Shown here: piece by piece, positions 16,496 through 39,625 of the stretch | How the letters are laid out: every line of letters begins with the position of its first letter | Numbering within the stretch: position 1 is the stretch's first letter | Assembly (NCBI GenBank): GCA_001775395.1 | Contig: MEWP01000069.1 | Location: 16,114 to 80,113 of the forward strand | Length of the DNA stretch: 64,000 nucleotides | Reading direction: 5' to 3' | Source: a candidate division Zixibacteria bacterium RBG_16_53_22 | Lineage (GTDB): Bacteria; Zixibacteria; MSB-5A5; UBA10806 | Made by a program: the position numbers and the translations under genes | Notes under the pieces: generated by a model | Told to the model about the DNA's origin: nothing | Databases searched by the model: none | The model's input: only the letters and a program-made list of their open reading frames with translations

Positions 16496-16629
16496 TGGCG
16501 GTTTTTTGTTCTCAAAGTGTTCCCATAATGTTCCCACGGAGGATTTTGCCGATATGGAAAGGCTTGTAAGTCCTTGAAAGATGATAGCGGCGCAGGGATT
16601 CGAACCCCGGACACGAGGATTATGATTCC
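16496..16629. repeat. tRNA-proximal island end (alpha), copy 2
   Basis: 134-bp direct repeat of 62608-62741 with 2 mismatches; includes TGTTCCCA x2 and the att core. Confidence 0.92.
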
Positions 16630-16793
16630 CAGCCGAAGAAATATAATAAATTACGGGTAATCATCGACTTGTATACGGCCAGAGAAAAATGAGGATTTTT
16701 GCTGATGGCATTAAGAGGACCATTCATGCTCGATGAAATGCAGAGAATGGCCAATTAAGTATTTTGAGCACCAGGCAGCACCGGAAAGCAGCA
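16563..16793. repeat. 231-bp direct repeat spanning the att core and tRNA-distal island end (beta), copy 1
   Basis: Matches 55172-55402 with 3 mismatches. Confidence 0.93.
16585..16629 (-). repeat. tRNA-Met 3' fragment, att core (island II/III junction)
   Basis: Exact 45-bp match to 62697-62741. Confidence 0.93.
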
Positions 16794-17402: not shown

Positions 17403-19295
17403 ATGAAAAAAAGAATTTCCGAAAGCCTTCATCTCAAGATAGCTCTCTTGATACTTTCGATTCTTACATTCTCCGCCGCGACCATATTCTATACGCAATA
17501 TCGCCTGAGCAAAAGCCATCTTACCAATTCCCTCAAGGTGTCAACCACGCACCTCAGCAATACGCTCTTGCGGAGTTTCGAAATCGCCATGCTGGGACGG
17601 CGGTTGGAGGAGATCCAGCAGGCCCTGGAGGAAATAGGGCAGGAGCCGCAGATTGACAGGATATTCATTGTGAATAAATCGGGCGAGGTCAAAGTTTCAT
17701 CCGACCGCTCGCAGCTTGGCAGAGTGATCCATATTTCGGAAAGGACCTGCCAGGTATGTCATGAATTCAGGCCGGCCGATCGAGAGCAATCAATCATAAT
17801 AAAAGACGATCGCGTCAGTTTCCTTCGCAGTGTCAATCCCATCAGGAAAAAGCCGATTTGCGAAAAATGTCACCGCGGCGACGAAACGATGCTCGGGATG
17901 CTGGTTACCGATGTTTCCGTGAAGGATATCGAGGCCCTGACGAGGAGCAATCTGAATATAACATTTGTAATGATTGTGGCCACCCTGCTTTTCATGGCGG
18001 GAGCCTTCAGGCTGGGGTTCAAGAAAATCATCCTCGATCGCCTGGCCTTGCTGAAGGCCGCGGCCGGAAGGCTGGAGAAAGGTGATTTCTCGGCGCGGGC
18101 GGCGCTGGATACCGGCGATGAGCTTGGAAGGCTGGCCGGGACCTTCAACCGCATGGCCGATAACCTGACGCAATCGCTGGCCCGGATCGAGCGGGCACGA
18201 GCCTATCTCGAAAACCTGATCAATAGCATCGATGACGGTGTGGCCGTAATCAAGAGAGACCGAACGCTGGTCATGGTAAATGACGCTTACCTTCGGATGT
18301 TTGACAGCGACAAACGCGATCGAAGCGAATATCTTAATTCACCCCTTGAACATTTGAACCCGTTTCATGGCGAATGGTGCCGAATCCCGGAGAAAAGATG
18401 CAATGTCTGCACGGTATTCGAGACCGGTGAATTTTCCAACAGAATCGTCTCGCTGGTCTCCAGGGACGGCGCCCAGAAAGTCTACGAATCTTATATTTCG
18501 GTCCTCAGCAAGGACGAACAGGGGGTCGTGGAGATCGTAGAGGATCTTCGAGATACGACTATCAGGAAGAAGTTCGAAACGCAGATGATAGAGGCGGAAC
18601 GGCTTGTCTCGGCAGGCAAGTTGGCCGCCGGAGTTGCCCACGAGATTAATAACCCCATGGCTTCCATTTCAACATGCGCCGAGGGCCTGCTTAAGATGAT
18701 CGACGATTTTCCGGCCGTGAATGAGCAAAAAAGCCTGCTGCGGGAATATTTGGAGACGATCCGAGACTCCGCCTTCAGATGCAAAGCCATCACCCAGCGC
18801 CTATTGAATTTCGCATCGATTCAAAGCAGTGAATTTGAGCCTCTTGACTTCAATGAGGTAATCGAGGATGCCGTCAGGCTTGTCCAATACGATATCTCCG
18901 CAAAGGGGGTCGATCTCGAATTGAAGTTATCCCGCGAAATGCCCAGCGTAAGGCTTTCACGGACATCGTTTCCTCATGCGGTCGTGAATCTCATTTTGAA
19001 TTCGCTTTATGCTGTCGAGAGAAGGGGCAAGATAACAATCACCACTCTCCTGCAGGGACAACGTGCGGCTTTGAAGGTGGAAGATAACGGCTGCGGCATA
19101 GACGGGCGTCACCTGCAGCGCGTGTTCGAGCCTTTCTTCACAACCAAGAAAGTCGGTGAGGGCTCCGGCCTGGGCCTATTTATTTGCCGCAACATCGTAA
19201 ATAACCATGGCGGCGAGATCGACATTCAAAGCGAGGCCGGCAAGGGCACGGTCGTAACCATCAGGATACCAGTGACGGAAGAAGCCAATGGATAA
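17403..19295 (+). CDS. sensor histidine kinase with periplasmic di-heme c domain, HAMP and PAS
   Basis: Two TM segments flanking CQVCH and CEKCH; HAMP (DELGRLAGTFNRM); AHEINNP H-box; GSGLGL G-box. Confidence 0.92.
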   Translation: MKKRISESLHLKIALLILSILTFSAATIFYTQYRLSKSHLTNSLKVSTTHLSNTLLRSFEIAMLGRRLEEIQQALEEIGQEPQIDRIFIVNKSGEVKVSSDRSQLGRVIHISERTCQVCHEFRPADREQSIIIKDDRVSFLRSVNPIRKKPICEKCHRGDETMLGMLVTDVSVKDIEALTRSNLNITFVMIVATLLFMAGAFRLGFKKIILDRLALLKAAAGRLEKGDFSARAALDTGDELGRLAGTFNRMADNLTQSLARIERARAYLENLINSIDDGVAVIKRDRTLVMVNDAYLRMFDSDKRDRSEYLNSPLEHLNPFHGEWCRIPEKRCNVCTVFETGEFSNRIVSLVSRDGAQKVYESYISVLSKDEQGVVEIVEDLRDTTIRKKFETQMIEAERLVSAGKLAAGVAHEINNPMASISTCAEGLLKMIDDFPAVNEQKSLLREYLETIRDSAFRCKAITQRLLNFASIQSSEFEPLDFNEVIEDAVRLVQYDISAKGVDLELKLSREMPSVRLSRTSFPHAVVNLILNSLYAVERRGKITITTLLQGQRAALKVEDNGCGIDGRHLQRVFEPFFTTKKVGEGSGLGLFICRNIVNNHGGEIDIQSEAGKGTVVTIRIPVTEEANG

Positions 19296-20649
19296 GCCCG
19301 ACAAGAAAGAGACGCAGAAACCGCTCATTCTGCTTGTAGATGACGACGCCACCTTCTCCAATGTTTTCCGCCGCGAGCTGACCCGAATGGATTTCGAGGT
19401 GGATTATGAAAGCGATTCGAAGAGGGTTCTGCAACTCCTGGGAGAACGCAGTTACGATGTCTTGCTTCTGGATATTTTTCTGCCGGAAACGGACGGCATT
19501 GCCGTCCTGCAGTCCGTCAAGAAATTAAACACGGAATTGCCGGTCATCATGCTGACCGGCTATGCCACCATCGACACGGCCATTAAGTCCATGAAGATGG
19601 GAGCCTTCGATTATCTATCCAAGCCCTTCCGATTAGATGAGGTCAGGGTCGTCATAGATAAGGCTATGGAAAATCGAAAACTCTCCGAATCCAACGCCAG
19701 ATTAAGGGAGGGACTCTCTGAGCGGCTGTATTCCAAGATGATTGGAAAGTCCAAAGCCATGTTGGATACGATCGCCATGATTAAGAAAGTGGCCCCGTCG
19801 GATTCAACCGTTCTTTTGATGGGAGAATCCGGCACCGGCAAGGAATTGGCCGCTCGGCTTATCCACCGGCTCTCGCACAGGGCCGAGGAGCCGTTCGTCA
19901 TTGTCGATTGCAGCACCCTGCATGTCAACCTTGTGGAGTCGGAGCTTTTCGGCCATGAGAAGGGAGCCTACACGGGGGCATCCAAGCGAAAACATGGCTT
20001 GTTCGAAGTCGCCAATGGCGGTACTACTTTCCTCGATGAGATAGGCGAGATCAATCCACTCACCCAGTCCAAACTTCTAAGAATCATTGAGACGGGGGAA
20101 TTCAGAAGGCTCGGAGGAACCGAGGGGATCTCGGTCGATGTCAGAATAATAGCGGCCACCAACCGAAACCTGGGAATAATGGTTACTGACAACCTTTTTC
20201 GAGAAGACCTGTTCTATCGGATAAATGTCTTTTGTATAAAGATACCGCCTTTGCGCGAGAGAAAAGAGGATATCGTCGAACTGGCTAATTATTTCGTGGA
20301 AAAGAGAAGCCAGTCTATGCGCCAGCCAAAAGAGTTTTCAGACAGCGCCATAATCATGATGCAGAACTATGATTGGCCCGGCAATATCCGCGAGCTGGAA
20401 AATGTAGTTGAGCGGGCCCTGGTTTTGTCGGAAACGAGCGTTATCGATGTCGATGACCTGCCGTTGAATATCCGGGGCAATTTCAATTTCGCTGCCCGCG
20501 ATAAGGATTTCAGAAGCTTATCTGAAATAGAAGGTGATTATATCAGATTTATCTTAAATAAATGCAATGGCAACCAGGCCCAGGCAGCCGCCATCCTTGG
20601 CGTTGACCCCAAAACTTTGTATAGGCATCTGAGAAAAAATCGGGAATAA
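19288..20649 (+). CDS. NtrC-family sigma54-dependent response regulator
   Basis: REC domain (LLVDDD, LLDI, KPF), GESGTGKE, ESELFGHEKGAYTGA, HTH. Confidence 0.93.
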   Translation: MDKPDKKETQKPLILLVDDDATFSNVFRRELTRMDFEVDYESDSKRVLQLLGERSYDVLLLDIFLPETDGIAVLQSVKKLNTELPVIMLTGYATIDTAIKSMKMGAFDYLSKPFRLDEVRVVIDKAMENRKLSESNARLREGLSERLYSKMIGKSKAMLDTIAMIKKVAPSDSTVLLMGESGTGKELAARLIHRLSHRAEEPFVIVDCSTLHVNLVESELFGHEKGAYTGASKRKHGLFEVANGGTTFLDEIGEINPLTQSKLLRIIETGEFRRLGGTEGISVDVRIIAATNRNLGIMVTDNLFREDLFYRINVFCIKIPPLRERKEDIVELANYFVEKRSQSMRQPKEFSDSAIIMMQNYDWPGNIRELENVVERALVLSETSVIDVDDLPLNIRGNFNFAARDKDFRSLSEIEGDYIRFILNKCNGNQAQAAAILGVDPKTLYRHLRKNRE

Positions 20650-20966
20650 TGCCCGATTACTGCAATTTCGCCGACTTTCTCCGAAGTCATCAAGTTTCAT
20701 AAACTTGGAATGACAACCGGCGCCTGATCGGGCAAAATGCCCTTTTGGGTTTGTAATGTCCAATAATCCGTCCGTCTAACTTGTTAAACCGCAATCATAT
20801 ATTTTCTCGACATACCGGCACATTATTTTCTTATGACTTGAACTTGAAGCTCCATAAGGGCACTGGTCGCTAATGACTTGATGAGGCGGCCAAATGGAAT
20901 ATTCAAGCCAGCGTCCGCCGCCAAATTCACAAGATACTATGCGCGCCGAAAGGATGAACATCTAAG

Positions 20967-21479
20967 GTGAATAAACAGACCGTTTTCTCGGCAGCCGCGA
21001 TACTCATTCTCGTTATCTGCATTTCGGTTCTGGCAGTTGGCAAGCGTTCATTCGATCAGCCTATAGAATTTAACCATTATAAGCATTTTGTCGAATTGGA
21101 CGTCGAATGTCAATTTTGTCATCAGACCGTGGAGGCCAATGACGTTGCCGGTCTGCCCAATGTAGAGATTTGCATATTCTGCCACGAAGAAGGCGTGGTC
21201 AGTGAAAATCCCCGATTTCATGAAGTGGTTCAGATAATCCGGGAGTATTCTCGACGCCAGGAGAAGATAAAGTGGAACCGTATCTACGATTTACCGTCGC
21301 ATGTCATTTTTTCACATCGAATTCATATCGGCGCCGGGGTCGAATGCGAAAGCTGCCATGGAATAACCGGCAAGTCGAAGCGGCCATCGGGCCAACCGGA
21401 ATTGATAAGCATGGATAGTTGTATGGATTGTCACCGCAGGAATAACATCGAGACCGATTGCCTGGTCTGTCATAAATGA
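20967..21479 (+). CDS. pentaheme cytochrome c (QrcA/ActA-like)
   Basis: N-terminal TM segment, QPIEFNH, five CxxCH motifs, HVIFSHRIH; GTG start. Confidence 0.85.
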   Translation: MNKQTVFSAAAILILVICISVLAVGKRSFDQPIEFNHYKHFVELDVECQFCHQTVEANDVAGLPNVEICIFCHEEGVVSENPRFHEVVQIIREYSRRQEKIKWNRIYDLPSHVIFSHRIHIGAGVECESCHGITGKSKRPSGQPELISMDSCMDCHRRNNIETDCLVCHK

Positions 21480-21480
21480 T

Positions 21481-23835
21481 ATGGAAATAGATAGAAGAAA
21501 TTTCTTCAAAGTGGGAATCTTCACGGCCGGGACATTGATCGCTCCGCGTCTCTGGGGTGATATTGGGTTGGAAACTGTGGCAGAACAGCCATGGGAAGGC
21601 CCGCCCGGGCATGAAAATGAAGTCTTATCGGTTTGCCAAATGTGTCCCAACGGATGCGGCATCCGTGTCAGAATTTATGAGGGTCGAGCGGTGAAAATCG
21701 AGGGTATCCCCGGTCATCCTCTGAATAATGGAAGCTTATGCCCCAGGGGACAATCAGCGCTTCAACTGTTGTACCATCCCCACCGGCTGGCATACCCGGT
21801 TCTAAACAAAGGCGCCAGGGGCAACGGCAGCTTGCAGAGGATGACTCACGAGGAAGCCGTCGGTTTGCTGGCGGAGAAAATCGGCGATTTAGTGCGCCGA
21901 AGGCAAACTCATCGATTGGTCATTGTCTCCGGAAGCCATAGCGATACGGATGAGTTGATTTTACGCAGATTCTGTGATTCCGTGGGGACGCCCAACTATA
22001 TCAAAATTGAGAGCCTGGGACGCCGGTCGAGATCCATGGCAATGGGACTTTCCCAGGGGATATTCAAGCCGCCCAGCATAGATTGGAGCAACTGCAATTT
22101 CGTAATGCTGTTCGGTTCGGAACCGGGAACCTCGGATATCTCGCCGATGTGGCTCTTGCGCGGTTTTGGCGAATTGCGTCAAGGGCGAGCCGGGCGACGC
22201 GCAAAAATCGTGCATGTTTCCACCCATTTCTCTCCTTTTTCGTCAAAGGTTGATGATTGGATTAAGATTAAACCGGGCACGTACGGAGCATTGGCGCTGG
22301 GGATCGCCCATATCATCATTAGCGAAGAAAAGTACGATGCCGACTTTATAGAACATTTTACGCTTGGCTTTGAGGAATTCAAAGAAGTCGATGGCACGTT
22401 AAGGCCGGGTTTTAAGGAACACGTCCTCAATAATTACGAACCCGCGAAAGTCTCCTCCATAACCGGCGTGCCGGAAGAGGTCATAATACGTCTGGCCGAC
22501 GAGTTTTCATCAAATCGCCCGGCGGTCGCCTACGGCGGGGATGGCCCGGCATCCTATTCCAACGCCGTCTCCGAGCTTGTAGCGATTCATTCGCTCAACG
22601 CGCTCATCGGAAGCATCGATGTCCCCGGAGGAGTATTGATTCAACGGGATCCGCCGCTCAGGATGCCCGAAAGAGTATCAAACAACTCATTATTCACGCA
22701 CAACCTGAGCCAGCCTCCGGTGGATGACTCAATCAGGAGTTCAAACTTGCCTGTCTATATGGCCGGGTCGAATTTACCGATGCGACTCTCAGACAGCTCC
22801 CCATATCCAGTGGAAGTGCTGGTATTGGTTGATTATGACCCTCTGGAAGAGGCCCCTGGACCAAATTATTGGCGCGAAGCTTTCAAGCAGATTCCCTTCG
22901 TAGTAAGTTTCTGCAATTTCAGCGATGAGTCTTCACGAATATGCGATCTCGTTATACCTCCTGGCACCTTCCTTGAGAGATGGGATGGGAAATCCGTCGA
23001 TTCCAGTGTTGGATTTCCAGTGTGGGGACTTTCGCGTCCTGTCCTCGAGACTCCCCTGGACGGCATGGACCCATCCAGCTTCTTCATGAAACTCGCAAAA
23101 AGCATGGGGCATCAGATTGCCGGCGCATTCCCCTGGCAATCGATAGAAGAGCTGCTAAAGGAAATAGCCATGGACCTCAATCCTTCTCCCGGGCAGGTCA
23201 ATCCCTGGGACGAGATAGCCGCCAAGGGGTACTGGTCTCAAAGCCCTTACAGGTTCGGAAGGCAGCGGGAGGTATACCAGACCCGAGGAAATCGCTTCAA
23301 CTTTTTCATGTATTCGATGGAGGCCGCGGCATCGCACCTTCGCTCCGCCGGATATGCCAATTTAGATAAAACCGGAACGGATTTGGCTCAATCGGCTTTC
23401 CTGCCCAATCATAATTCTGCCGAATTTGAAAACTGGGATAATCGAGAACTTTTCTTTTTGGAGCTGTTTGGCACGACGTTAAGCGGACATGGCCGCCATT
23501 TTTCGCTTGAGGGGCTTCGCGAATTGCAGGAGCTCGACCTCAACAAAAGCTGGGGGCTATGGCTGCTGATAAATCCTCGGACGGCATCGAAACTCAATCT
23601 ATCTAATAATGAAATAGTTTGGGTGGAATCTAACCACGGCAAATTATCCGCCCGTGTGAAAAAGGTCGAGGGGATCAGCGAAGATTCAGTCGGCATGATA
23701 TTCGGGCAGGACAAGGGCACGGAACATAGCGACACACTATCCAATTCAGCGATGTCCCTGGTTGGCGAAAATATCTCTCCTCTGGGCGGCGGACTTTGCT
23801 GGGGAACAACAAAAGTTAGAATTTACAGGGCATAA
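21481..23835 (+). CDS. Tat-exported molybdopterin-oxidoreductase-family subunit (QrcB/ActB1-like, probably non-catalytic)
   Basis: RRNFFK Tat motif; CQMCPNGC...C FS0 motif; MGD-binding motifs degenerate (STHFS for DPR, PGTYG for PGTD). Confidence 0.82.
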   Translation: MEIDRRNFFKVGIFTAGTLIAPRLWGDIGLETVAEQPWEGPPGHENEVLSVCQMCPNGCGIRVRIYEGRAVKIEGIPGHPLNNGSLCPRGQSALQLLYHPHRLAYPVLNKGARGNGSLQRMTHEEAVGLLAEKIGDLVRRRQTHRLVIVSGSHSDTDELILRRFCDSVGTPNYIKIESLGRRSRSMAMGLSQGIFKPPSIDWSNCNFVMLFGSEPGTSDISPMWLLRGFGELRQGRAGRRAKIVHVSTHFSPFSSKVDDWIKIKPGTYGALALGIAHIIISEEKYDADFIEHFTLGFEEFKEVDGTLRPGFKEHVLNNYEPAKVSSITGVPEEVIIRLADEFSSNRPAVAYGGDGPASYSNAVSELVAIHSLNALIGSIDVPGGVLIQRDPPLRMPERVSNNSLFTHNLSQPPVDDSIRSSNLPVYMAGSNLPMRLSDSSPYPVEVLVLVDYDPLEEAPGPNYWREAFKQIPFVVSFCNFSDESSRICDLVIPPGTFLERWDGKSVDSSVGFPVWGLSRPVLETPLDGMDPSSFFMKLAKSMGHQIAGAFPWQSIEELLKEIAMDLNPSPGQVNPWDEIAAKGYWSQSPYRFGRQREVYQTRGNRFNFFMYSMEAAASHLRSAGYANLDKTGTDLAQSAFLPNHNSAEFENWDNRELFFLELFGTTLSGHGRHFSLEGLRELQELDLNKSWGLWLLINPRTASKLNLSNNEIVWVESNHGKLSARVKKVEGISEDSVGMIFGQDKGTEHSDTLSNSAMSLVGENISPLGGGLCWGTTKVRIYRA

Positions 23836-23836
23836 A

Positions 23837-24529
23837 ATGACTCGCTGGGGAATGGTAATAGATCTCGATCGCTGCAGCGGTTGCCAGGCATGCGTAGTCG
23901 CCTGTCGGCAAGAGAATAATATTCCCGTTGTCGGCCGGGAACAGGCGGCCATGGGGCGGGCCATATTCTGGATGCAGATAATCGAGGAACGGGAGGGCGG
24001 GCACAATGAGGGACGCACCAGGTATCTGCCAAGACCATGCATGCATTGTGACAATCCACCCTGTGTCAAGGTCTGCCCGGTCGGGGCAACATACCGAAAC
24101 CCGGAGGGATTGGTAGGTCAGATATATGCCAGATGTATCGGATGCCGTTATTGCACGGCTGCCTGCCCTTATACGGCCAGGTATTTCAACTGGTATGAAC
24201 CAAGCTGGGAACCGCCGCGGGAGAAATCGCTCAATCCCGACGTCTATGTCCGTCCCAAAGGCGTGGTCGAAAAATGCAGTTTCTGCGTGCATAGGATCAG
24301 GAAGGCCCAGAGGAAAGCAAAGGACGAGAACAGGGAAATCGAAGACGGGGAGGTAATCCCCGCCTGCGCCGAAACCTGCCCGTCCAAGGCGATACATTTC
24401 GGGGACCTTGACGATCCCGACAGCGAGGTCTCCAAACTGGCCGGGAGCCGGCGAGCGTTCCGCTTGGAGGAATTCTTGGGCACGGACCCCAAAGTGATTT
24501 ACCTGAGAGAAGGAGAATGGAGTGAATAA
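23837..24529 (+). CDS. 4Fe-4S dicluster subunit (QrcC/NrfC/ActB2-like)
   Basis: WGMVIDLDRCSGCQAC, CMHCDNPPCVKVCP, CIGCRYCTAACPY, KCSFC...CAETCP. Confidence 0.9.
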   Translation: MTRWGMVIDLDRCSGCQACVVACRQENNIPVVGREQAAMGRAIFWMQIIEEREGGHNEGRTRYLPRPCMHCDNPPCVKVCPVGATYRNPEGLVGQIYARCIGCRYCTAACPYTARYFNWYEPSWEPPREKSLNPDVYVRPKGVVEKCSFCVHRIRKAQRKAKDENREIEDGEVIPACAETCPSKAIHFGDLDDPDSEVSKLAGSRRAFRLEEFLGTDPKVIYLREGEWSE

Positions 24530-25868
24530 TAGAAGCGCCTCGATTGCCGTGGCGATTTCGGTGGATCATCCGCTCGTAAAGCCCGTCTCGACATCCGGGG
24601 GGGGGTTCTATGTTACCGCCTTTGCCCTGTTGATTGTCATGGGCTGGGCGTTTATCGCCTGGCTTACGCAATATATTCGAGGGCTCGGAGTTAGTGGTCT
24701 GGACCGGCCGGTTTACTGGGGCGTATATATAACAAATTTCGTTTTCTTCGTGGGGATAAGCCACGCTGGAACCTTGATTTCAGCCATTCTTCGCGTTACC
24801 GGATCGGAGTGGCGCCGGCCGATCACCAGGGCGGCGGAGGCGATAACCGTTTTTGCGCTCATGGTCGGGCCCATCAATGTCTTTTTTGATTTGGGCAGGC
24901 CTGACCGGGTGCTGAACATGTTCCTGCACGGGCAACTGAAATCGCCGCTCATGTGGGATGTCATTTGTATCTCGACATATCTCGTCTCGAGCCTTGTCTA
25001 TCTATACCTGCCACTGATACCGGACATCGCGGAGCTTCGCGATACCGGGATCAGACCGAGATGGTTCTACCGTTTGCTTTCCCTGAACTGGCGCGGGACA
25101 GAAAAGCAGAAACATATCTTAGAGAAAATGATAAGAGTCATGGCTATTGCAATAATACCCATTGCCGTCTCCGTGCATACGGTCGTGTCATGGGTGTTCG
25201 CCATGACAATTCAACCCATGTGGCATTCGACCATATTCGGCCCTTATTTTGTGGTCGGGGCCATATTCTCGGGCATAGCCTCGATAATCATCGCCATGGC
25301 TATATTAAGGAAAGTCTATCATCTCGAGGACTACTTAAAACCCATACATTTCAACAACCTCGGTATCCTGCTTCTGGTGATGACCTGCCTTTGGGTGTAC
25401 TTCACTTTTGCAGAATATCTCACCACCTTCTATGGCGGCGAACCGGCTCACATGGCGGTTTTTTATTCGAAGTTGACAGGCGAATTTGCGCCGATGTTTT
25501 GGTCGATGGGAATCTTATGCTTCATAATACCGTTTGTTATCCTGGCGGTCGGGCGATTCCGCACCATCACCGGAACCGTGATCGCGTCAATCTCGGTCAA
25601 TATCGGCATGTGGCTCGAACGATACACCATAGTAGTACCATCGCTTTCCAATCCCAGGCTTCCCATAAGTGAAATTACATACTACCCCTCATGGGTGGAG
25701 ATTTCGATAACCGCCGGATGTTTTGCCGGATTGACGTTCTTCTATGTTATGTTCTCCAAAATATTTCCCATCATCTCAATATGGGAATTAAAGGAAGGCG
25801 GAGTCGATGTGGCGGCGGGAGAGGTAATTTCCAGCGCCGCCACCTCGGGAAAAAAGAGGATGCAATGA
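24522..25868 (+). CDS. nrfD: NrfD/PsrC-family quinone-interacting membrane subunit (QrcD/ActC-like)
   Basis: WGVYITNFVFFVGISHAGTLISA, RAAEA, DLGRP, SPLMWD; multi-TM. Confidence 0.9.
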   Translation: MNNRSASIAVAISVDHPLVKPVSTSGGGFYVTAFALLIVMGWAFIAWLTQYIRGLGVSGLDRPVYWGVYITNFVFFVGISHAGTLISAILRVTGSEWRRPITRAAEAITVFALMVGPINVFFDLGRPDRVLNMFLHGQLKSPLMWDVICISTYLVSSLVYLYLPLIPDIAELRDTGIRPRWFYRLLSLNWRGTEKQKHILEKMIRVMAIAIIPIAVSVHTVVSWVFAMTIQPMWHSTIFGPYFVVGAIFSGIASIIIAMAILRKVYHLEDYLKPIHFNNLGILLLVMTCLWVYFTFAEYLTTFYGGEPAHMAVFYSKLTGEFAPMFWSMGILCFIIPFVILAVGRFRTITGTVIASISVNIGMWLERYTIVVPSLSNPRLPISEITYYPSWVEISITAGCFAGLTFFYVMFSKIFPIISIWELKEGGVDVAAGEVISSAATSGKKRMQ

Positions 25869-26827
25869 GCAAAGCTGTCATTCAACTGGTCTTGTCCGTT
25901 ACATTTCTGGCAATTACTTTTCAACCCCTGATTGAGGTCTGGGCCGGAAGCCCGGAGGAGGGGCGCAAGTTATTCCTGGCCTTCTGTTCGGCCTGCCATG
26001 GCGCGGTCGGCAAAGGCGACGGAGAGGCGTCCAAGTATCTCGATATTAAGCCTCAGGATTTTACAGATCAAAGCGTCATGGTAAAGTTATCCGATCAGGA
26101 CATCTTCAATTTCATTCATGGAGAAAATAACCGGTTCCACGGGGCCCGATTCCTGCCGGGATTTCAACTGCAGCTGACAGAAATGCAAATTTGGGACCTC
26201 GTCTCATTCATCAGGACACTTCATACCAAGCCCAAGGGCGATCCGGTCAGCGGCCGAAAGCTGTATCTCATTTATTGCTCCACCTGCCACGGCAAGGATG
26301 GTCAGGGCAAGGGTGAGGCGGCGGAATTTCTCGAACGCAAACCCGCCGACCACAGCGATAACGATCGAATGACACAGAAGACCGATGATGAATTATATAA
26401 CGTCATTTCGCAGGGAGGAGCCGCAGCGCACCGGTCGGGTTCGATGCCGCCCTGGACCACGACGTTATCCCCGCAGCAAATCTGGGATATCGTATCATTT
26501 ATCAGGCTATTGCATCGTCAATCGAAATATGAGGGCGTGGCATCGAACGCAACCGCCAATTTCAATAAATATTGCAGCGTTTGTCACGGGCAAAATGGAG
26601 GCGGCAATGGCGCAATTGCGGCGGCATTTACTCCCCGGCCGCAAAACCTGGCCGACTCGGATTATCTGCGCGCCCATTCGCGCCTCGATATCTACTTCGC
26701 CATTATGGGCGGCGGAAATGCGGTCGGAAAAACGCAGTATATGCCTCCCTGGGGCGACGTCTTATCCCAGCAGGAGATCTGGGACTTGGTCGGCTATATA
26801 GAAAAACTCTCCAGGTCGAGCAGGTAA
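25865..26827 (+). CDS. exported cytochrome c with three monoheme domains
   Basis: Signal peptide; CSACH, CSTCH and CSVCH, each followed by P(Q/A)xx..MPPW-like segments (the first lacks the distal Met motif). Confidence 0.85.
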   Translation: MSKAVIQLVLSVTFLAITFQPLIEVWAGSPEEGRKLFLAFCSACHGAVGKGDGEASKYLDIKPQDFTDQSVMVKLSDQDIFNFIHGENNRFHGARFLPGFQLQLTEMQIWDLVSFIRTLHTKPKGDPVSGRKLYLIYCSTCHGKDGQGKGEAAEFLERKPADHSDNDRMTQKTDDELYNVISQGGAAAHRSGSMPPWTTTLSPQQIWDIVSFIRLLHRQSKYEGVASNATANFNKYCSVCHGQNGGGNGAIAAAFTPRPQNLADSDYLRAHSRLDIYFAIMGGGNAVGKTQYMPPWGDVLSQQEIWDLVGYIEKLSRSSR

Positions 26828-26831
26828 TCGA

Positions 26832-28004
26832 ATGGTCCGCAAGATTCTTCTCATATCAAGAGCCATTGCATTCTGCCTGTGCGCAGGTCTGCTTCTGATC
26901 CGCTGTGAAGCGGCGAGCAAAGACAGCACCGAGGGCGCTCCCATAAGAATCGGAGTCGTGCTTTCGCTAAGCGGCGAGAGATCGACCTATGGAAAGGACT
27001 GCCTGAAAGGCATCAACATGGCCCTCGACCTCGCCAATGATATGGGGGGTATCAAGGGAAGAAAAGTCGAATTAGTCGTGCGGGATGACAACTCATCGGT
27101 CGTCAAGACAATGCAAGCGACACAGGATCTGAGCCAGAGCCCTTCGGTGCTGGCGGTTCTCGGGGGGACCGGAAGCAAGCTGGCTCTGGCGGGCGCCAGT
27201 ATAGCCCAGGAACTAAAGATCGCTTTCATGACTCCACTGGCGACAAACACCGATGTGACGGATATCGGTACTTATATCTCGAGAATTTGTTTCAGCGATT
27301 CATATCAGGGACCGGCCCTGGCCGATTATTCATTCAAATTCCTGAAACTGAAGTCAGCCGGCATAATATTCAATCCCGAGGATGAGTATTCTCTGGGCCT
27401 CGCGACATCATTTAAGAGACACTATATGGAAATTGGCGGCGAAGTGCTTCTGGAAATTTTTCAATCGCCTGCAGAATCAGATTCCGCCATGATCATCAGA
27501 GCCATAATGAACAAGAAGCCCGATGCCATATATATGCCCGGATATCACGCCGAGGCGGCAAATTTGGCCGTGCTGTTGAAGCACAGCGGCATGAATGTCG
27601 CAATGCTTGGAAGCGACGGCTGGGAATCCCCCGAGTTTCTGGAAAAGACGTCCCCCATTCTTACCGACACCGACCGGGTTTATATCACAACACATTTTTC
27701 TCCGGATGATAATCATCCGTTGGTACAGCGCTTCGTTGCCGATTATAAGGGGCTGTACGGCGAGCTGCCGACAGCCCCCGCGGCTCTGGGTTACGATGCC
27801 GCCGGTGTGCTTTGCGAGGCTCTGCGACGGACTCCCCAGCTGGAACGCCGCGCCATCTCGGAATCAATCAACTCCATCAGCGATTTCGAGGGCGTTACGG
27901 GAAACATCACAATAGATGAAAAAAGAAATGCCGTCAAGGATGTAGTGATCCTCAAGGCCTACGGGGGCCGGTTTGTATTTGAGACCACTACCAGGATAAG
28001 ATAA
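26832..28004 (+). CDS. LivJ/LivK-type periplasmic substrate-binding protein
   Basis: IRIGVVLSLSG, GINMALD...GGIKGRKVELVVRDD, ALGYDA, FEGVTGNI; no ABC permease or ATPase nearby. Confidence 0.88.
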   Translation: MVRKILLISRAIAFCLCAGLLLIRCEAASKDSTEGAPIRIGVVLSLSGERSTYGKDCLKGINMALDLANDMGGIKGRKVELVVRDDNSSVVKTMQATQDLSQSPSVLAVLGGTGSKLALAGASIAQELKIAFMTPLATNTDVTDIGTYISRICFSDSYQGPALADYSFKFLKLKSAGIIFNPEDEYSLGLATSFKRHYMEIGGEVLLEIFQSPAESDSAMIIRAIMNKKPDAIYMPGYHAEAANLAVLLKHSGMNVAMLGSDGWESPEFLEKTSPILTDTDRVYITTHFSPDDNHPLVQRFVADYKGLYGELPTAPAALGYDAAGVLCEALRRTPQLERRAISESINSISDFEGVTGNITIDEKRNAVKDVVILKAYGGRFVFETTTRIR

Positions 28005-28027
28005 TAATTTTGGGAAAGGAGACCGTT

Positions 28028-29344
28028 ATGGGACTCCAAGCCATTATCTGCCCGCTCGTTTGCCTGATAACTGTGACAACCCGGGCAAACGGCGAAAACA
28101 GCAATCCGGCATTCTATGGTATATCAACTTATTCTTATACATCAAGCGAAGTCTGCGCCCGGTGTCATAAAGATATCTATGATTTGTGGGAAAATTCCAT
28201 GCACGCCAAAAGCGTCGACGACCCGGTCTTCGTGGCCGATTTCATCATGGTTCAACTGGCGCGCGGCTCCGATATCAAGGCCTACTGCCTGAGTTGTCAC
28301 GCCCCCACCACCAGCTTAACAAAGGATTATGATCTTAGAAACGGAATTTCCAGCGAGGGTGTGACATGTGATTTCTGTCACTCGGTCAGCGCCCTGGGCA
28401 CCTCCCCGGAGCAGGCCTATTATACTCTGGACCCGGGCCAGATGAAATACGGGCCTTTTCGCGATGCTTCTTCACCGGCTCATGAGACTGCATATTCGGA
28501 AAACCACACCAAATCCGAATTCTGTGCCGGATGCCATGAACTGGTGAACAAGCATGGCGTGGCCGTGATGGCTACTTACAGCGAGTGGAAGAATAGCGCT
28601 TATGCCAAGGAAGGTATACAGTGCCAGAATTGCCACATGCCGATAACATACAACCTGAATGTCGTCGACAAGGTTGTAAAGGAGTCCGACCATTTTCTCA
28701 CGGCCCATGAATTCCGCGGAGGACATTCCCTGATAAACCTTCAGCATTCCTCAACAATAGAAACCGAGGTCACCCGGAATGGAAATGTTGCCAAAGTGAT
28801 AACAAGGGTGACGAATTCAGAATCCGGTCACAAGTTGCCAACCGGCACGCCGGGAAGGAAAGTGATACTCAATACGAAGATTCTGGACAAGGGCGGAAAC
28901 CTGCTGGCCGAGGTGAACAAAGTTTACAGGAAAGTACTGGTGGACGATAACGGCGTCATCATCGAGGATAACGCCGGCATGATTCTCGATGCGGCGCAGA
29001 TTTTCAGCGACAATCGTATCGCTCCCAAGGAAACCAGAATTGAGACTTTCGAATTTGACGTGCCCGATGCCATCGATTATTTCACCGTGCAAAATACGCT
29101 TCAATACGAATTTTCCAGGCCTGTCCTCAAGACGGAAAAGGTCGTTTTTCAGATGGCGCAGGATGTGATAGATGTCAAGGGTGATCACGCATATGCCAAG
29201 GCGCTCATGCTGTCAGGGGAAAATTCGCGGACATGGGGTGTGATTATTTCGCTCGGGGTGATCGTATTGAGCCTCCTGGCGTTCTCATTTTTCGAGAGAA
29301 AAAAATGGGGCGCCCGGGAAGAAATCAACAAAGCCACCCCCTAA
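28028..29344 (+). CDS. pentaheme c554/c-552-like multiheme cytochrome with C-terminal TM anchor
   Basis: AAGGAG RBS; signal peptide; CARCH, CLSCH, CDFCH, CAGCH, CQNCH; GHKLPTG; C-terminal hydrophobic helix. Confidence 0.85.
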   Translation: MGLQAIICPLVCLITVTTRANGENSNPAFYGISTYSYTSSEVCARCHKDIYDLWENSMHAKSVDDPVFVADFIMVQLARGSDIKAYCLSCHAPTTSLTKDYDLRNGISSEGVTCDFCHSVSALGTSPEQAYYTLDPGQMKYGPFRDASSPAHETAYSENHTKSEFCAGCHELVNKHGVAVMATYSEWKNSAYAKEGIQCQNCHMPITYNLNVVDKVVKESDHFLTAHEFRGGHSLINLQHSSTIETEVTRNGNVAKVITRVTNSESGHKLPTGTPGRKVILNTKILDKGGNLLAEVNKVYRKVLVDDNGVIIEDNAGMILDAAQIFSDNRIAPKETRIETFEFDVPDAIDYFTVQNTLQYEFSRPVLKTEKVVFQMAQDVIDVKGDHAYAKALMLSGENSRTWGVIISLGVIVLSLLAFSFFERKKWGAREEINKATP

Positions 29345-29494
29345 GATCGCAGGCGATCAATTTCCCGGCACCGATAATCATGCCCGGCATCGGCAAAAGA
29401 TCCGGGGGCCATTCACCACAACCACATAGGGCGGTCTAGAGACCGCCCTATGGCATCCTATGAGCAAGGCAGCAAAACGAAAGGAGAAAAAGAC

Positions 29495-30376
29495 ATGACG
29501 ATTCGGGATCTTCAATTCAACGTATTCACGTTGATCTTCGCTGGATTACTTCTATTTGGCGCGGTTGGATGCGGTGAAGATAAGAACGGGACATCCCCGC
29601 CTGCCGACCCGGCTGGCTACATCAATGCCGACGGAATGAGAGGCGGCAGGCTTTACGACGAGTTCTGGGCGACCGAGACCGGATGGAGTCAGTCAGATAC
29701 CAATCTGGCTACCTACGACAGCCATTCCGATTTCTTCCGATGCAAGCAATGTCATGGGTGGGATCTTCTCGGCAGCACGGGCGCCTACATCTCACGCGCA
29801 CCCAGAATGACCCGTCCGAATGTTTCATCCCTGAACCTTCGCTCAATCGCCGCCAGTAGGACGCCTCAGGAGCTTTTCGATGCTCTGAAGCGTTCGAACG
29901 GCAGACGCGCTATCAGCGCGGATCTGTCGACTTACGATCCGGGCACGAATCCCACAATTGGCGACCAGATGCCCGACTACGGCACCATCTTCACCGATGA
30001 ACAGATCTGGGATCTGGTCCGGTTCTTGAAACTTGATGCAATTGATATTTCCATACTCTACGATTTCCAAACGACGGGAACCTACCCAACCGGCTCGATC
30101 ACGTTTTCCAACATCGGCGAAGACGGGAACGCGAGCAGTGGAGACTCAATCTTTGCAGCAAAGTGTGTGGGTTGTCATGGAGCGGATGGTGCTGAGTTTT
30201 TGGTCGACGGTGGAAGTTACACGGTCGGTAGGCATCTGCGCGAAAAACCGAATGAAGATCAGCACAAAATAAAATTCGGGCAACTCGGATCTATTATGGG
30301 CAGCCAGGTTACCGATGAAAATGAGATGAAGGATCTCTATAGGGCCCTCACGGATCAAACCAGGTATCCCGATTAG
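29495..30376 (+). CDS. di-heme cytochrome c lipoprotein
   Basis: AAGGAG RBS; AVG-C lipobox; GGRLYDEFW...FRCKQCHGWD and CVGCH. Confidence 0.82.
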   Translation: MTIRDLQFNVFTLIFAGLLLFGAVGCGEDKNGTSPPADPAGYINADGMRGGRLYDEFWATETGWSQSDTNLATYDSHSDFFRCKQCHGWDLLGSTGAYISRAPRMTRPNVSSLNLRSIAASRTPQELFDALKRSNGRRAISADLSTYDPGTNPTIGDQMPDYGTIFTDEQIWDLVRFLKLDAIDISILYDFQTTGTYPTGSITFSNIGEDGNASSGDSIFAAKCVGCHGADGAEFLVDGGSYTVGRHLREKPNEDQHKIKFGQLGSIMGSQVTDENEMKDLYRALTDQTRYPD

Positions 30377-33875: not shown

Positions 33876-34348
33876 AGAAACTAATTTCCCTGAATGTGAA
33901 CGGAATTGCTCATGAATTGGCGGTCGAGCCTCGCCGCACGCTGCTTGAGCTTTTGCGTGAGGATTTGGGCCTCACCGGCACAAAAAAAGGCTGTGGAATA
34001 GGAGATTGTGGCGCCTGCACAGTTTTGGTTGACGGGGTTGCCACATTCAGTTGTTTGACACTGGCTATTCAGGTCAACGGCTGTTCGGTGGAGACGGTAG
34101 AGGGACTGACCAAGGATGGCAAATTAAGCCGCCTGCAACAAGCCTTCGTTGATCACGGGGCAATTCAATGCGGTTATTGCACGCCGGGGATGCTCATGAC
34201 AACCACCGAGCTATTGAGGCGGAATCAACATCCGAAGGAGCAGGAAATCAGGAAGGCAATCTCGGGCAATCTTTGCCGTTGCACCGGATATCAGAAGATT
34301 GTCGAGGCTATTCAAGAGGTTGCTCGGAGTGAGAATGAAGAAATATAG
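33872..34348 (+). CDS. xanthine-dehydrogenase-family [2Fe-2S] subunit (HcrC/CoxS-like)
   Basis: GCGIGDCGACTV, QCGYC, GNLCRCTGY. Confidence 0.92.
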   Translation: MKKLISLNVNGIAHELAVEPRRTLLELLREDLGLTGTKKGCGIGDCGACTVLVDGVATFSCLTLAIQVNGCSVETVEGLTKDGKLSRLQQAFVDHGAIQCGYCTPGMLMTTTELLRRNQHPKEQEIRKAISGNLCRCTGYQKIVEAIQEVARSENEEI

Positions 34349-36719
34349 CATACTTAACAGCCGTGTTCCCCGAGTCGACGCTGTCGATAAAGTTACGGGC
34401 AAGGCGCTCTATACCGATGACATCAAGATGCCCGGCATTCTGATTGGCGCTATCTTGCATAGCCCATTGGCCCATGCCAGAATATTAAATATTGATACAT
34501 CGTTGGCGGAACGGCTGCCGGGCGTAAAAGCAGTCGTAACACATCGCGAGGCGGGGACAACTCCTTACGGGGTTAGCCCGGCCCGATATGATGAGACCAT
34601 ATTCTGTCATGACAAGGTGCGATATGTGGGCGACGAGATAGCGGCGGTGGCTGCGATTGATCTTGACACTGCCTTGGAGGCGGTGAGCCTCATCAAAGTT
34701 GATTTCGAAGAGTTGCCGGTGGTTTTGGATGGCCGCCGGGCCATGGAAGAAGGCCGTCCTTTGCTTCATGACATATATAAAAATAACATTTGCGCCGAGG
34801 TCCACTGGCATTTTGGCGATATCGAGCAAGGCAAAAAGGAATCCTATATAGTACGCACCGATCATCTGACCAGCAAAATGCAGGACGCTGCCTTTTTAGA
34901 GCCGCAGAGCGTGATTGCCGAAGTCGATTCCCATGGCAATTTGACGATGTGGAGCTCAACCCAGGCGCCGCACTATATCCAGCGAACTTTAGCCATGGCC
35001 CTCAACATTCCTTTGCATAAGGTGCGGGTAATCAAGCCCGCAGTCGGTGGTGGATTCGGCCCCAAGGCCTCCTGCTCCACGGCCGAGCTGGCCACATGCC
35101 TGCTTGCCATAAAGACCGGCAAGCCGGTGAAGCTCACGTTTGACCGCGAGCAGGTTTTTCTGCATTCGCGTGCCCGTCATCAGTTCTTCCATACTATGAC
35201 CACGGGAGTGAAAAAAGACGGGACGCTGGCCTTTTTGGATCATCAATGTATCCTTGATGGCGGAGCATACGCCAGTTTCGGCATCGCCACGATCTACTAC
35301 GCCGGTTCGCTTTTGGGGGGACCATACCGGCTGAAGAATATGAAATATGACGGCTACCGGGTTGTCACGAATAAGCCTGCTTGCGGAGCCCAGCGCGGAC
35401 ATGGTGCCGTAATTGCCCGGGCGTTGTTCGAGGTGCAACTTGACCGTATTGCCGAGGAGTTGGGGACCGATCCTATTGAGCTTCGGCTAAAAAATGTCAT
35501 GGAGGCCGGGGAGACTACCTGTAATGAGCTTTTTGTTTCAAGTTTCGGAATGCGGGAAGCGCTTGAGGCGGTCCGCGATTCGGCGGCCTGGAAGAAGAAG
35601 CGTTCATTGAGTGGAAAAACGCGCGGCCAGGGCAGGGGAATCGGTGCTGCCTGCGGTTTCTTTGTCTCGGGGGCAGGCTATCCGATTTACCGGTCCCGAA
35701 CCTATCACTGCACAGTGGTGACAAAGGTCGACGATGTCGGCGGTGGTGTGACAGTATCATCAGGTGCCGCAGACATCGGCCAGGGTTCAGATACGGTGCT
35801 TGCCATGATTACCGCCGAGGAATTAGGCCTGCCGCTTGATGATGTCAAGGTGATATCAGGTGATTCCAATCTCAGCGTGGATTTGGGCGCCTATTCCAGC
35901 CGCACCACTCTTATGACAGGCGCCGCCTGCCGCGATGCCGCCAGGGATGTAAAGCGTCAAATCCTCGAGGCCATAGCCGGAGTTCTCTGTGTGCCTCCTG
36001 AAACGCTTGACCTGAAAGACGGCAAAGTCGAAAGCCTAAGTGGCGAATTGGATTTTTCAAAAATTCGCGAAGAATACCTTCGGGAACATAAGGGTTTTAT
36101 AGACCTTCCTAATGAGTTATGTCTGACCTTTCGGGAAGCAAGCCGAATTGCCTTCCTCGAACGAGGCAGCATCGTGGGAGTGGGCATGTATCGTCCTCCT
36201 CCATTGGGTGGCTCATTCAAGGGGGCAACAGTTGGCACTTCACCTGCTTTTGGATGTTCAGCGCAGGTGGCCGAGGTTTCAGTTGACCTGGGGACCGGAG
36301 AAATTACGGTGGAAAATATCACCGGAGCGCACGATTGCGGTTTCGCCATAAATCGCACACAGGTCGAGGGGCAGATGCAAGGCTCGATGATGATGGGAAT
36401 GGGCGAGGCCCTTATGGAACAGATAATATATGATAAGAAGGGTCGCATTGTAAACGCCAACCTCGCCGAATATAAAATCCCGACCGCAATGGATATGCCG
36501 CATCTTGAGGCGATCATTGTCGAATCCAATGAACCTCATGGACCTTATGGGGCGAAGGAAGTCGGCGAAGGGGCGATAATGCCAGTCATTCCTTCCATTC
36601 TCAACGCCGTTTACGATGCCACCGGCGTGCGCATCGAGGAGTTGCCTCTCACTCCAGAACGGTTGGTGGCAGCAATGGAAGAAGCAAAGAAAAAGCCATC
36701 CCTCCAAGAGAATCCTTAA
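34335..36719 (+). CDS. hcrA: Mo-binding large subunit, 4-hydroxybenzoyl-CoA reductase alpha-like
   Basis: CGAQRGHG, FFVSG, GAADIGQGS, GAYSSR and GPYGAKEVGEG resemble HcrA as I recall it; adjacent to bcr genes. Substrate unproven. Confidence 0.72.
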   Translation: MKKYSILNSRVPRVDAVDKVTGKALYTDDIKMPGILIGAILHSPLAHARILNIDTSLAERLPGVKAVVTHREAGTTPYGVSPARYDETIFCHDKVRYVGDEIAAVAAIDLDTALEAVSLIKVDFEELPVVLDGRRAMEEGRPLLHDIYKNNICAEVHWHFGDIEQGKKESYIVRTDHLTSKMQDAAFLEPQSVIAEVDSHGNLTMWSSTQAPHYIQRTLAMALNIPLHKVRVIKPAVGGGFGPKASCSTAELATCLLAIKTGKPVKLTFDREQVFLHSRARHQFFHTMTTGVKKDGTLAFLDHQCILDGGAYASFGIATIYYAGSLLGGPYRLKNMKYDGYRVVTNKPACGAQRGHGAVIARALFEVQLDRIAEELGTDPIELRLKNVMEAGETTCNELFVSSFGMREALEAVRDSAAWKKKRSLSGKTRGQGRGIGAACGFFVSGAGYPIYRSRTYHCTVVTKVDDVGGGVTVSSGAADIGQGSDTVLAMITAEELGLPLDDVKVISGDSNLSVDLGAYSSRTTLMTGAACRDAARDVKRQILEAIAGVLCVPPETLDLKDGKVESLSGELDFSKIREEYLREHKGFIDLPNELCLTFREASRIAFLERGSIVGVGMYRPPPLGGSFKGATVGTSPAFGCSAQVAEVSVDLGTGEITVENITGAHDCGFAINRTQVEGQMQGSMMMGMGEALMEQIIYDKKGRIVNANLAEYKIPTAMDMPHLEAIIVESNEPHGPYGAKEVGEGAIMPVIPSILNAVYDATGVRIEELPLTPERLVAAMEEAKKKPSLQENP

Positions 36720-39576: not shown

Positions 39577-39625
39577 GAGGTAAGCATATGATATCGGCGA
39601 AAATTAGATCGCAAGAGGGCCTGCG

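Follow-up and report, generated by a model that had tools for sequence, protein, structure and literature searches.

An uncharacterised family with ties to alternative complex III and Qrc, and a divergent clade of it predicted on an island in a Zixibacteria contig

The core redox genes, their nearest relatives and the wider family

The window analysed here is a stretch of 64,000 nucleotides (nt) of contig MEWP01000069.1, from candidate division Zixibacteria bacterium RBG_16_53_22. On its forward strand, an uninterrupted run of ten genes (17403-30376) extends from a sensor kinase through to a diheme lipoprotein, and within this run five tightly packed genes (20967-26827; intergenic distances of -8 to +5 nt) encode the subunits of a predicted membrane redox complex. 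Judged from sequence, the module lies on an island and represents a divergent branch of a family that has yet to be characterised and has ties to both alternative complex III (ACIII) and Qrc. The core genes are, in order, cytA5 (20967-21479), encoding a membrane-anchored, ActA/QrcA-like pentaheme cytochrome c with five CxxCH motifs and an N-terminal transmembrane (TM) helix; MoB (21481-23835), for a subunit with a twin-arginine translocation (Tat) export motif (RRNFFK) and the fold of molybdenum bis(pyranopterin guanine dinucleotide) (Mo-bisPGD) enzymes, as indicated by alignments and an AlphaFold2 (AF2) model; FeSC (23837-24529), for an iron-sulfur (FeS) subunit with 16 cysteines in four groups of four and no signal peptide; nrfD (24522-25868), for an ActC-like, NrfD-type integral membrane quinone-binding subunit with approximately ten TM helices by hydropathy; and cyt3 (25865-26827), for a protein that lacks a lipobox and has a signal peptide or signal anchor and three class-I cytochrome c domains in tandem.

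The most likely start of FeSC is the ATG at 23837, two bases past the MoB stop codon, and not the TTG at 23762. The cyt3 ATG at 25865 overlaps the nrfD stop codon as ATGA and is preceded approximately 8 nt upstream by GAGG, so the translational coupling of these genes that had been proposed in an earlier, sequence-only reading of this DNA is real. Gene calls and domain matches likewise agree with the order given there, namely pentaheme cytochrome c, Tat-exported Mo-family subunit, 4Fe-4S subunit and NrfD, with separate B and C genes, while its statement that ActD and ActF are lacking is borne out by tblastn, which finds a single NrfD-type gene on the contig, and by gaps within the core that are too small for another. 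Its sequence-level claims could all be verified, apart from two start codons that were corrected.

Comparison with solved structures gives the subunits different nearest relatives. The best Protein Data Bank (PDB) matches of cytA5 are ActA chains (8k9e_A: 87 bits; 6f0k_A: 80 bits; range: 76-87 bits), NrfD matches the ActC chain 6f0k_C over its full length (phmmer; 243 bits) with no match to PsrC in the same search, and FeSC matches the C-terminal FeS domain of ActB (6f0k_B; 225 bits). The best scores of MoB are those to ArrA (173 bits) and PsrA (145 bits), against only 34 bits to ActB. As such, the membrane and cytochrome parts are ACIII-like, MoB is Arr/Qrc-like and FeSC lies in between, making the complex chimeric in its affinities. 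The four corresponding NCBIfam Qrc models all score below their cut-offs (QrcA: 81 against 180 bits; QrcB: 228 against 440; QrcC: 293 against 400; QrcD: 44 against 570). True Qrc operons, taken from a wider sample of Thermodesulfobacteriota (QrcB: 469-970 bits), share 25-33% amino acid identity with MoB, 49-51% with FeSC and 20-27% with NrfD, while NrfD is 36-38% identical to the ActC proteins of the genome itself, which carries two canonical ACIII loci (C18 and C112) with fused ActB (999 and 1005 amino acids, respectively) and ActF.

With the ACIII structures 6F0K, 6BTM, 6LOD and 8K9E, the window complex shares the ActA-like pentaheme cytochrome anchored at its N-terminus, an FeS module that shares 45-46% of its residues with ActB2, an NrfD aligning with ActC over its full length, a class-I cytochrome c in the position of ActE, and a Mo-enzyme-derived subunit that looks non-catalytic. 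It differs from them in that B1 and B2 are separate genes whereas ActB is fused, in that MoB is not ActB1-like and keeps the cysteines of the FS0 cluster, in the four cysteines of the proximal-cluster motif where ACIII has the CxGTxxC of a [3Fe-4S] cluster, in the absence of ActD, ActF and ActG, and in a cyt3 of three domains (four in the wider family) without a lipobox, ActE being a mono- or diheme lipoprotein. Shared with Qrc, the menaquinone reductase of sulfate reducers, are the order of the four genes (multiheme cytochrome, Mo-like subunit, FeS subunit, NrfD), in which B and C are unfused, the QrcC-like FeS motif including its essential Tyr, an Asp at the quinone-site position in TM helix 2, and a MoB which lacks a Mo ligand and reaches 33% identity to proteins that exceed the QrcB cut-off. 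The complex is set apart from Qrc by its scores below all four cut-offs, the low identity of NrfD to QrcD, the retention of FS0, which is lost in Desulfovibrio-type QrcB, and the fifth subunit, a multi-domain class-I cytochrome. ArrAB (6CZ7) and PsrABC (2VPW) provide the best sequence and fold matches of MoB and have in common with the window complex the Tat signal, FS0 and the layout of catalytic-like subunit, FeS subunit and NrfD anchor, but the window NrfD is of the ActC type with ten TM helices, not of the PsrC type, cytochrome subunits are added, and MoB lacks the Mo-ligand Cys, the ArrA substrate residues and the acids of the DPR and PGTD motifs.

A canonical ACIII was rejected on the unfused B subunit, the retained FS0, the four-Cys proximal motif and the missing ActD and ActF, and a canonical Qrc on the four NCBIfam scores and the distance of NrfD from QrcD; by its sequence the core complex is neither a true Qrc nor a true ACIII. 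The earlier description of it as a Qrc/ACIII hybrid is fair with regard to the gene order, the split B and C, the CIGCRYC motif of FeSC and the ActC-like NrfD. It is, however, not a one-off, but a member of the large family described below.

Four residues of NrfD are invariant in this family (D123, S141, D146 and R367). Ser141, Asp146 and Arg367 are the equivalents of ActC Ser164, Asp169 and Arg395, respectively, while Asp123 replaces ActC His139 and a Val replaces ActC Asp253. In the review of NrfD complexes (PMC8076601), quinone-site residues are mapped in ActC and QrcD, Arg395 of ActC is a proposed gate, and an Asp at the His139 position is also noted in QrcD, DsrP, HybB and Wolinella PsrC. 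In the NrfD tree, the family forms a compact clade of its own, which includes the window NrfD and lies a long way from QrcD; by path length its closest neighbour is ActC, within a polytomy that the tree does not resolve. The proximal-cluster motif of FeSC, CIGCRYC, is as in QrcC, while both ActB copies of the genome have C-x-G-T-R-Y-C. The Tyr between two of the proximal-cluster cysteines is essential in QrcC (PMC13059093). Since all four cysteines are present in FeSC, the proximal cluster is predicted to be [4Fe-4S] rather than the [3Fe-4S] of ACIII.

Relatives were collected by an alignment search with NrfD against contigs of one genome per species. A relative of the window NrfD is encoded in 473 genome stretches. 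In the best 80 of these, all of them from metagenome-assembled genomes (MAGs), NrfD is 59-86% identical to that of the window, and they represent Zixibacteria, Acidobacteria, Thermodesulfobacteriota/Syntrophales, Myxococcota, Planctomycetes, Verrucomicrobia/Lentisphaerae, Nitrospirota, Nitrospinota, Aminicenantes, Poribacteria, Binatia and Omnitrophota. The family order is cytA5, MoB (approximately 800 amino acids), the FeS subunit (approximately 228), NrfD (approximately 445) and a multi-domain class-I cytochrome, and membership was defined by this five-gene order together with identities of at least approximately 57% in NrfD and at least approximately 58% in the FeS subunit. The window keeps the order, and its NrfD and FeSC are 59-89% and 58-85% identical, respectively, to those of members from many phyla. 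Identities to the wider family outside the clade of the window are 60-65% for NrfD, 58-66% for FeSC and 25-34% for MoB. Within the clade, they rise to 79-89% for NrfD, 81-85% for FeSC, 69% for cyt3 and 58-61% for MoB, which is the least conserved subunit. Relatives of the window MoB at 56-90% identity are confined to a few metagenome contigs, one Zixibacteria MAG of another family (G024/L111) and contig L112, and no relatives were found when MoB alone or an alignment of the close clade was searched against the species genome contigs. In the metagenome contigs, the order of kinase, regulator, cytA5, MoB, FeSC, NrfD, cyt3, binding protein and pentaheme cytochrome is kept at 58% MoB identity, which argues that the arrangement is not due to chance.

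The cytochrome following nrfD contains four CxxCH motifs in 49 of 55 family loci and three in the other six, four of which belong to the clade of the window; cyt3 is as such a clade-specific reduction of the usual four-domain cytochrome of the family, although the scores of its domains against the four-domain proteins are too weak to say which domain was lost. It contains three Cytochrome_CBB3 domains and weakly matches ActE and CcoP (approximately 31 bits). The ActE likeness suggested in the sequence-only reading is thus present, if weak, but the cytochrome is not an addition, as a multi-domain cytochrome follows nrfD throughout the family. In the first domain of cyt3 (residues approximately 28-125), FLPGF stands where domains 2 and 3 have the MPPW Met ligand, and the FHG directly before FLPGF is conserved across all members of the clade, suggesting that the axial ligation and potential of heme 1 differ from those of the other two.

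Two members of the family have been mentioned previously in genome papers. A homologue in Zixibacteria RBG-1, with a [4Fe-4S] motif, a Tat signal and a non-conserved Arx/Arr pocket, was treated as a new catalytic clade of DMSO reductases sister to Arx/Arr (Castelle et al. 2013; PMC3903129). This is presumably our locus L104/L175, matched by description and not by gene identifiers, which has the order A-MoB-FeS-NrfD-tetraheme cytochrome and is 65% (NrfD), 63% (FeSC) and 31% (MoB) identical to the window. In MBNT15 SHF-111, an 'ACIII-like' cluster with a four-heme ActE-like protein was reported (Begmatov et al. 2022; PMC9386147). Compared with these two clusters, the clade of the window has three cytochrome domains rather than four, a much more degenerate MoB, and a location on an island. 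No biochemical study of the family was found in the literature, and it is absent from the complexes named in the consulted sections of PMC8076601.

Two further associations were observed among the relatives. In MAGs of Thermodesulfobacteriota/Syntrophales (L115, L118, L123, L124, L130, L133, L137, L145 and others), a three-gene module directly precedes the family operon and encodes a tetraheme cytochrome, an FeS protein of approximately 301 amino acids and an NrfD that is 25-28% identical to that of the window and groups with QrcD, not with the family, in the tree. In the Acidobacteria MAGs L125, L135, L140 and L164, the family operon is flanked by a decaheme cytochrome gene and an open reading frame (ORF) of 700-900 amino acids, in an MtrA/MtrB-like arrangement.

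Cofactor motifs and constraint in the molybdoenzyme-like subunit

The AF2 model of MoB (pLDDT: 87; pTM: 0.89) has the four-domain Mo-bisPGD fold with an N-terminal FS0 domain, and its best fold matches are ArrA (TM-score: 0.84) and PsrA (TM-score: 0.75). All four FS0 cysteines are in place (C52, C55, C59 and C87), as had been noted from the sequence. The position of the Mo ligand is occupied differently. In HMMER alignments, the ligand Cys of ArrA (6cz7; HSSVCAEAH) and of PsrA (2vpw; SLCTAPR) falls on Gly180 of MoB, within ESLGRRS, in keeping with the earlier statement that no Cys stands there, and this Gly is invariant within the clade of the window. Two motifs that contact the molybdopterin guanine dinucleotide (MGD) are altered in addition, with STH (247-249) in place of DPR and PGTY (265-268) in place of PGTD/PGQD, so that the alignments with ArrA and PsrA also agree with the claim that typical MGD contacts have been lost. 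Throughout the clade the motifs read S/G-T-R/H and PGTY, both acids of the nucleotide-binding motifs being gone. The substrate residues of ArrA (RGRY, His, Ser and Lys) are all replaced in MoB. Furthermore, the clade differs from the family at 23 of the 142 alignment columns that are at least 85% conserved, approximately ten of which lie in domain IV (E696, P699, P734, P740, H745, G754, N756).

The wider family shows a different pattern at these sites. FS0 is essentially invariant (176-178 of 180 sequences at each Cys), while the Mo-ligand loop is hypervariable, with a Cys anywhere in the loop in only 29 of 180. The [DE]xR motif is kept in 161, PGT[DE] in 159 and both in 152 of the 180 MoB sequences. 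Both acids are lost together in 12 family members, against approximately two expected by chance, an informal comparison given that the sequences are related. Cys-bearing Psr-like relatives retain DPR and PG[ST]D. Both MGD motifs are also missing from Desulfovibrio-type QrcB, for which the absence of redox cofactors has been reported (PMC13059093). Among the compared proteins that match the PF00384 domain, the window MoB has the lowest score (61 bits), followed by Desulfovibrio-type QrcB (76 bits), the clade relatives (82-94 bits), other family members (87-137 bits) and a Psr-like relative (145 bits), with 137-145 bits for Cys-bearing relatives, while the ActB of the genome itself has no match; PF01568 matches MoB with 37 bits. 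A catalytic enzyme of the Psr/Arr type was rejected for MoB on Gly180 at the ligand position and the loss of the MGD motifs. No PhsA, ArrA or QrcB above its cut-off was found in five Thermodesulfobacteriota genomes that carry the family.

The stem of the window clade measures 0.96-1.05 substitutions per site in MoB, against 0.15-0.24 for the matching NrfD stem. Relative to the 88%-identical locus L021, however, the ratio of nonsynonymous to synonymous substitution rates is 0.12 for MoB, as compared to 0.10-0.12 for its neighbours. With its predicted fold intact and FS0 invariant, MoB is still under purifying selection and in use. We hold it quite likely that the MoB of this clade is a constrained, non-catalytic scaffold which still carries FS0. 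The motif states suggest that it has probably lost the Mo cofactor while keeping one iron-sulfur cluster, and the proposal that the Mo-family subunit is probably cofactor-less is supported for the clade of the window by Gly180, the lost acids and the domain-IV changes.

Some observations on related proteins may be added. Four proteins above the QrcB cut-off (L225-L228, in G366, G400, G328 and G399) have a complete FS0 motif (CxxCxxxC...C) and retain E/D-x-[RYQ] and PGTE; in L223-L224, the best-scoring and Desulfovibrio-like ones, FS0 and the two motifs are missing. It may therefore be too general to say of all QrcB proteins that they have no redox cofactors. The ActB of C112 (L002:1261-4278) has a four-Cys, FS0-like N-terminal motif that is absent from the ActB of C18 (L004:544-3543). 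A third NrfD cluster of the genome, on C56 (L003:1363-3450 and downstream), encodes a Tat-exported Mo-family protein of 695 amino acids, an ORF of 161 amino acids, an FeS protein and NrfD, with no adjacent multiheme gene seen. This Mo-family protein has a Cys in the ligand loop (GGYCSDAAY), DPW and PGSD, sits on a very long branch in both trees and may be a catalytic enzyme.

Regulators, neighbouring genes and the integrated island

Upstream of the core genes, two regulators are encoded. The first is a sensor histidine kinase (17403-19295) with the Pfam architecture HAMP-PAS-HisKA-HATPase and two CxxCH motifs (residues 116 and 153) in a periplasmic loop between TM segments at approximately 11-29 and 184-202. 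The second is a sigma-54-dependent response regulator (19288-20649) consisting of a receiver domain, an AAA+ domain (PF00158; 222 bits) and a Fis-type helix-turn-helix. The kinase is co-located with the operon in relatives at 61-91% identity, those beside the operon in L101, L105 and L107 also have two CxxCH motifs, and the pair of two-heme kinase and sigma-54 regulator recurs in many family loci. A candidate sigma-54 promoter with a non-canonical -12 element (CGGCAC-N5-TTTC; 20816-20830) lies approximately 150 nt 5' of cytA5. Loci L021 and L022, which are 88% identical, carry TGGCAC-N5-TTTC at the same position, whereas no counterpart was found in the clade at 58% identity, making this a weak candidate.

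Downstream of cyt3 follow an orphan periplasmic binding protein of the LivJ/Peripla_BP_6 type (26832-28004; PF13458: 179 bits; PDB 3td9: 192 bits), for which no ABC transporter genes are present in the cluster, and MHC5 (28010-29344), a pentaheme cytochrome of the PHC/ExtKL/c552 family with five CxxCH motifs, a signal peptide and a C-terminal anchor (TM 410-428). In the PDB, MHC5 matches the Thermochromatium pentaheme cytochrome c552 (5ze8; e-value: 9e-17), while the ExtKL NCBIfam model scores below its cut-off (78 bits). The ExtKL/PHC pentaheme family has been linked to extracellular electron transfer (PMC11976967). The run ends with cyt2 (29450-30376; likely true start at ATG 29495), a diheme class-I cytochrome c lipoprotein by Pfam, with two CxxCH motifs and the lipobox AVGC. 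The binding protein and the PHC-type pentaheme cytochrome recur beside the operon mainly in the phylum Zixibacteria. A counterpart of cyt2 was not found downstream of the pentaheme gene in L023, which makes cyt2 the least conserved member of the module. By analogy with AioX/AioS/AioR (PMC5908839), the orphan binding protein may be a co-sensor acting with the kinase and the sigma-54 regulator.

The module lies within integrated DNA. A repeat at the left junction (16496-16793) has direct copies, at 95-99% identity, at 55105-55402 and 62608-62741, the last of which overlaps a tRNA-Met gene (62696-62771), and these three att-like repeats bound tandem integrated islands at tRNA-Met. The redox module starts approximately 0.6 kb inside the left repeat. 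In L021, the same repeat precedes the kinase gene by approximately 0.6 kb, the DNA on its far side being unrelated, and no match to MoB was found in two genomes of the same genus (69% and 86% complete); on both grounds, the module appears to be mobile. The 38.6-kb repeat-bounded unit that contains it also carries an aromatic-catabolism module (34299-47599), encoding the class-I benzoyl-CoA reductase BcrCBAD, a 4-hydroxybenzoyl-CoA-reductase-like alpha subunit and Had.

Proposed electron flow, alternative readings and significance

The best explanation, which we consider reasonably likely, is that 17403-30376 represents one sigma-54-regulated respiratory module on a tRNA-Met island, with a quinone-to-cytochrome complex in which MoB is cofactor-less. 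Menaquinol would bind at a periplasm-facing site between NrfD (Asp123, Ser141 and Asp146) and the Tyr of the FeSC CRYC motif, and electrons would pass from the quinol at this interface to the proximal [4Fe-4S] cluster of FeSC, the five hemes of cytA5, the three hemes of cyt3 and then to periplasmic or membrane-anchored partners, for instance the PHC-type pentaheme cytochrome and the diheme lipoprotein. NrfD may couple this transfer to proton movement via a conserved Arg367 pathway. MoB would be exported by Tat with FeSC as its passenger and act as a structural cap, with FS0 at the end of the FeS wire but without Mo-bisPGD and non-catalytic in the clade of the window. The heme-containing kinase, perhaps together with the orphan binding protein, would sense periplasmic redox state or a ligand and activate the operon by way of the sigma-54 regulator. 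The potential of Met-ligated class-I cytochromes is generally too high for an unaided reduction of menaquinone, and the MPPW Met ligands in domains 2 and 3 of cyt3 argue for quinol oxidation, although the reaction could run in reverse, as in Qrc.

Several points weigh against this explanation. The absence of a Cys proves nothing by itself, as no protein ligand is needed for Mo-bisPGD binding in arsenite oxidase. ActB1 is known to lack the Mo cofactor, yet both ActB copies of the genome keep E-x-R (FESRMS and IESSFS) and one keeps PPGE, so that the MGD motifs are an imperfect guide to whether the cofactor is bound. If the wire that the FeS clusters and FS0 form into MoB leads nowhere, it is difficult to see why FS0 should be conserved almost universally. 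Both MoB trees are star-like, the family forming a bush from which separate long branches lead to QrcB, to the Psr-like sequences (Cys-bearing relatives below the cut-off and not validated enzymes) and to the window clade, and no resolved sister group is claimed for MoB. As regards the direction of electron flow, the proximal cluster is predicted to be [4Fe-4S], as in Qrc and Psr, rather than the high-potential [3Fe-4S] of ACIII, and the PHC-type pentaheme family includes a low-potential member, according to a work cited by PMC11976967. Upstream of cytA5, no clean sigma-54 promoter was found, just the one non-canonical candidate.

The points concerning MoB bear on whether it is instead a catalytic Mo/W-bisPGD enzyme, a periplasmic reductase or oxidase of the Psr/Arr type wired to quinone via FeSC and NrfD. 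The cytochromes would then form a side branch, and the binding protein would sense the substrate or deliver it. The ArrA/PsrA fold, an essentially invariant FS0, which normally feeds a Mo site, the [DE]xR and PGT[DE] motifs kept in most of the wider family, the precedent of arsenite oxidase and the treatment of the RBG-1 homologue as a catalytic clade (PMC3903129) are all consistent with this. We nevertheless judge it improbable, as the clade of the window has Gly at the ligand position, no motif acids, replacements in domain IV and altered ArrA substrate residues, the ligand loop of the family is hypervariable, unlike that of any catalytic family, MoB is the least conserved subunit, and Pfam and NCBIfam scans detect no TorD/DmsD-type chaperone gene in the cluster. 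Alternatively, the emptied pocket of MoB might have taken on a new role as a redox site or docking port, serving a non-pterin cofactor, a small molecule as substrate or a partner protein, with the binding protein delivering or presenting the ligand. FS0 would then not be vestigial, and although we regard such a role as doubtful, the family would in that case represent periplasmic redox enzymes of a new kind, with the shell of a molybdoenzyme, and a living intermediate between Arr/Arx-type enzymes and ACIII/Qrc.

A functional Qrc, that is, a cytochrome c:menaquinone oxidoreductase feeding electrons from a periplasmic donor into the quinone pool, is suggested by the A-B-C-D order with split B and C, by the CIGCRYC motif with the Tyr that is essential in QrcC (PMC13059093), by QrcC being the top score of FeSC in the family library, and by the QrcD-like Asp at the ActC His139 position (PMC8076601). 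We consider it rather unlikely, given the four scores below cut-off, the low identity and distant placement of NrfD relative to QrcD, the Met-ligated cytochromes, which favour quinol oxidation, and the absence of hydrogenase, formate dehydrogenase and cytochrome c3 genes from the cluster in Pfam and NCBIfam scans, type I cytochrome c3 being the electron donor of Qrc. The sequence-only reading had further suggested that the complex supplies or disposes of electrons for the benzoyl-CoA reductase of the island, and the two modules do share the one repeat-bounded unit. This suggestion found no support. No aromatic gene occurs beside the module in the loci of relatives, of which only L023 reaches past the pentaheme gene, by approximately 2 kb, and a functional link was rejected. 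The conserved partners are regulators, the binding protein and cytochromes, and class-I benzoyl-CoA reductases draw their electrons from a cytoplasmic low-potential ferredoxin, not from periplasmic cytochromes. A service to aromatic catabolism is as such highly improbable.

Complexes built on NrfD are one of the main routes by which quinones and electron carriers of the periplasm are connected. The family to which the quinone-to-cytochrome complex proposed here belongs occurs in hundreds of species-level genomes of Zixibacteria, Acidobacteria, Thermodesulfobacteriota, Planctomycetes and other phyla, and seems to be one of the most widespread of those that nobody has purified. Its combination of an ActC-like NrfD, an unfused, FS0-bearing Arr/Qrc-like MoB and a predicted [4Fe-4S] proximal cluster may resemble the ancestor of ACIII and Qrc, and the placement of ActB next to ArrA in a published phylogeny (PMC10100899) is consistent with these mixed affinities. 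The location on a tRNA-Met island indicates that horizontal transfer can carry a respiratory unit of this kind as a whole, its own regulators included. While the outline of the complex will not surprise a specialist, the family is of use as a widespread, unstudied and intermediate-looking one in which the loss of cofactor motifs can be compared, a natural experiment on cofactor loss in which the motif acids are mostly kept, but both have been lost in at least 12 members and in the clade of the window.

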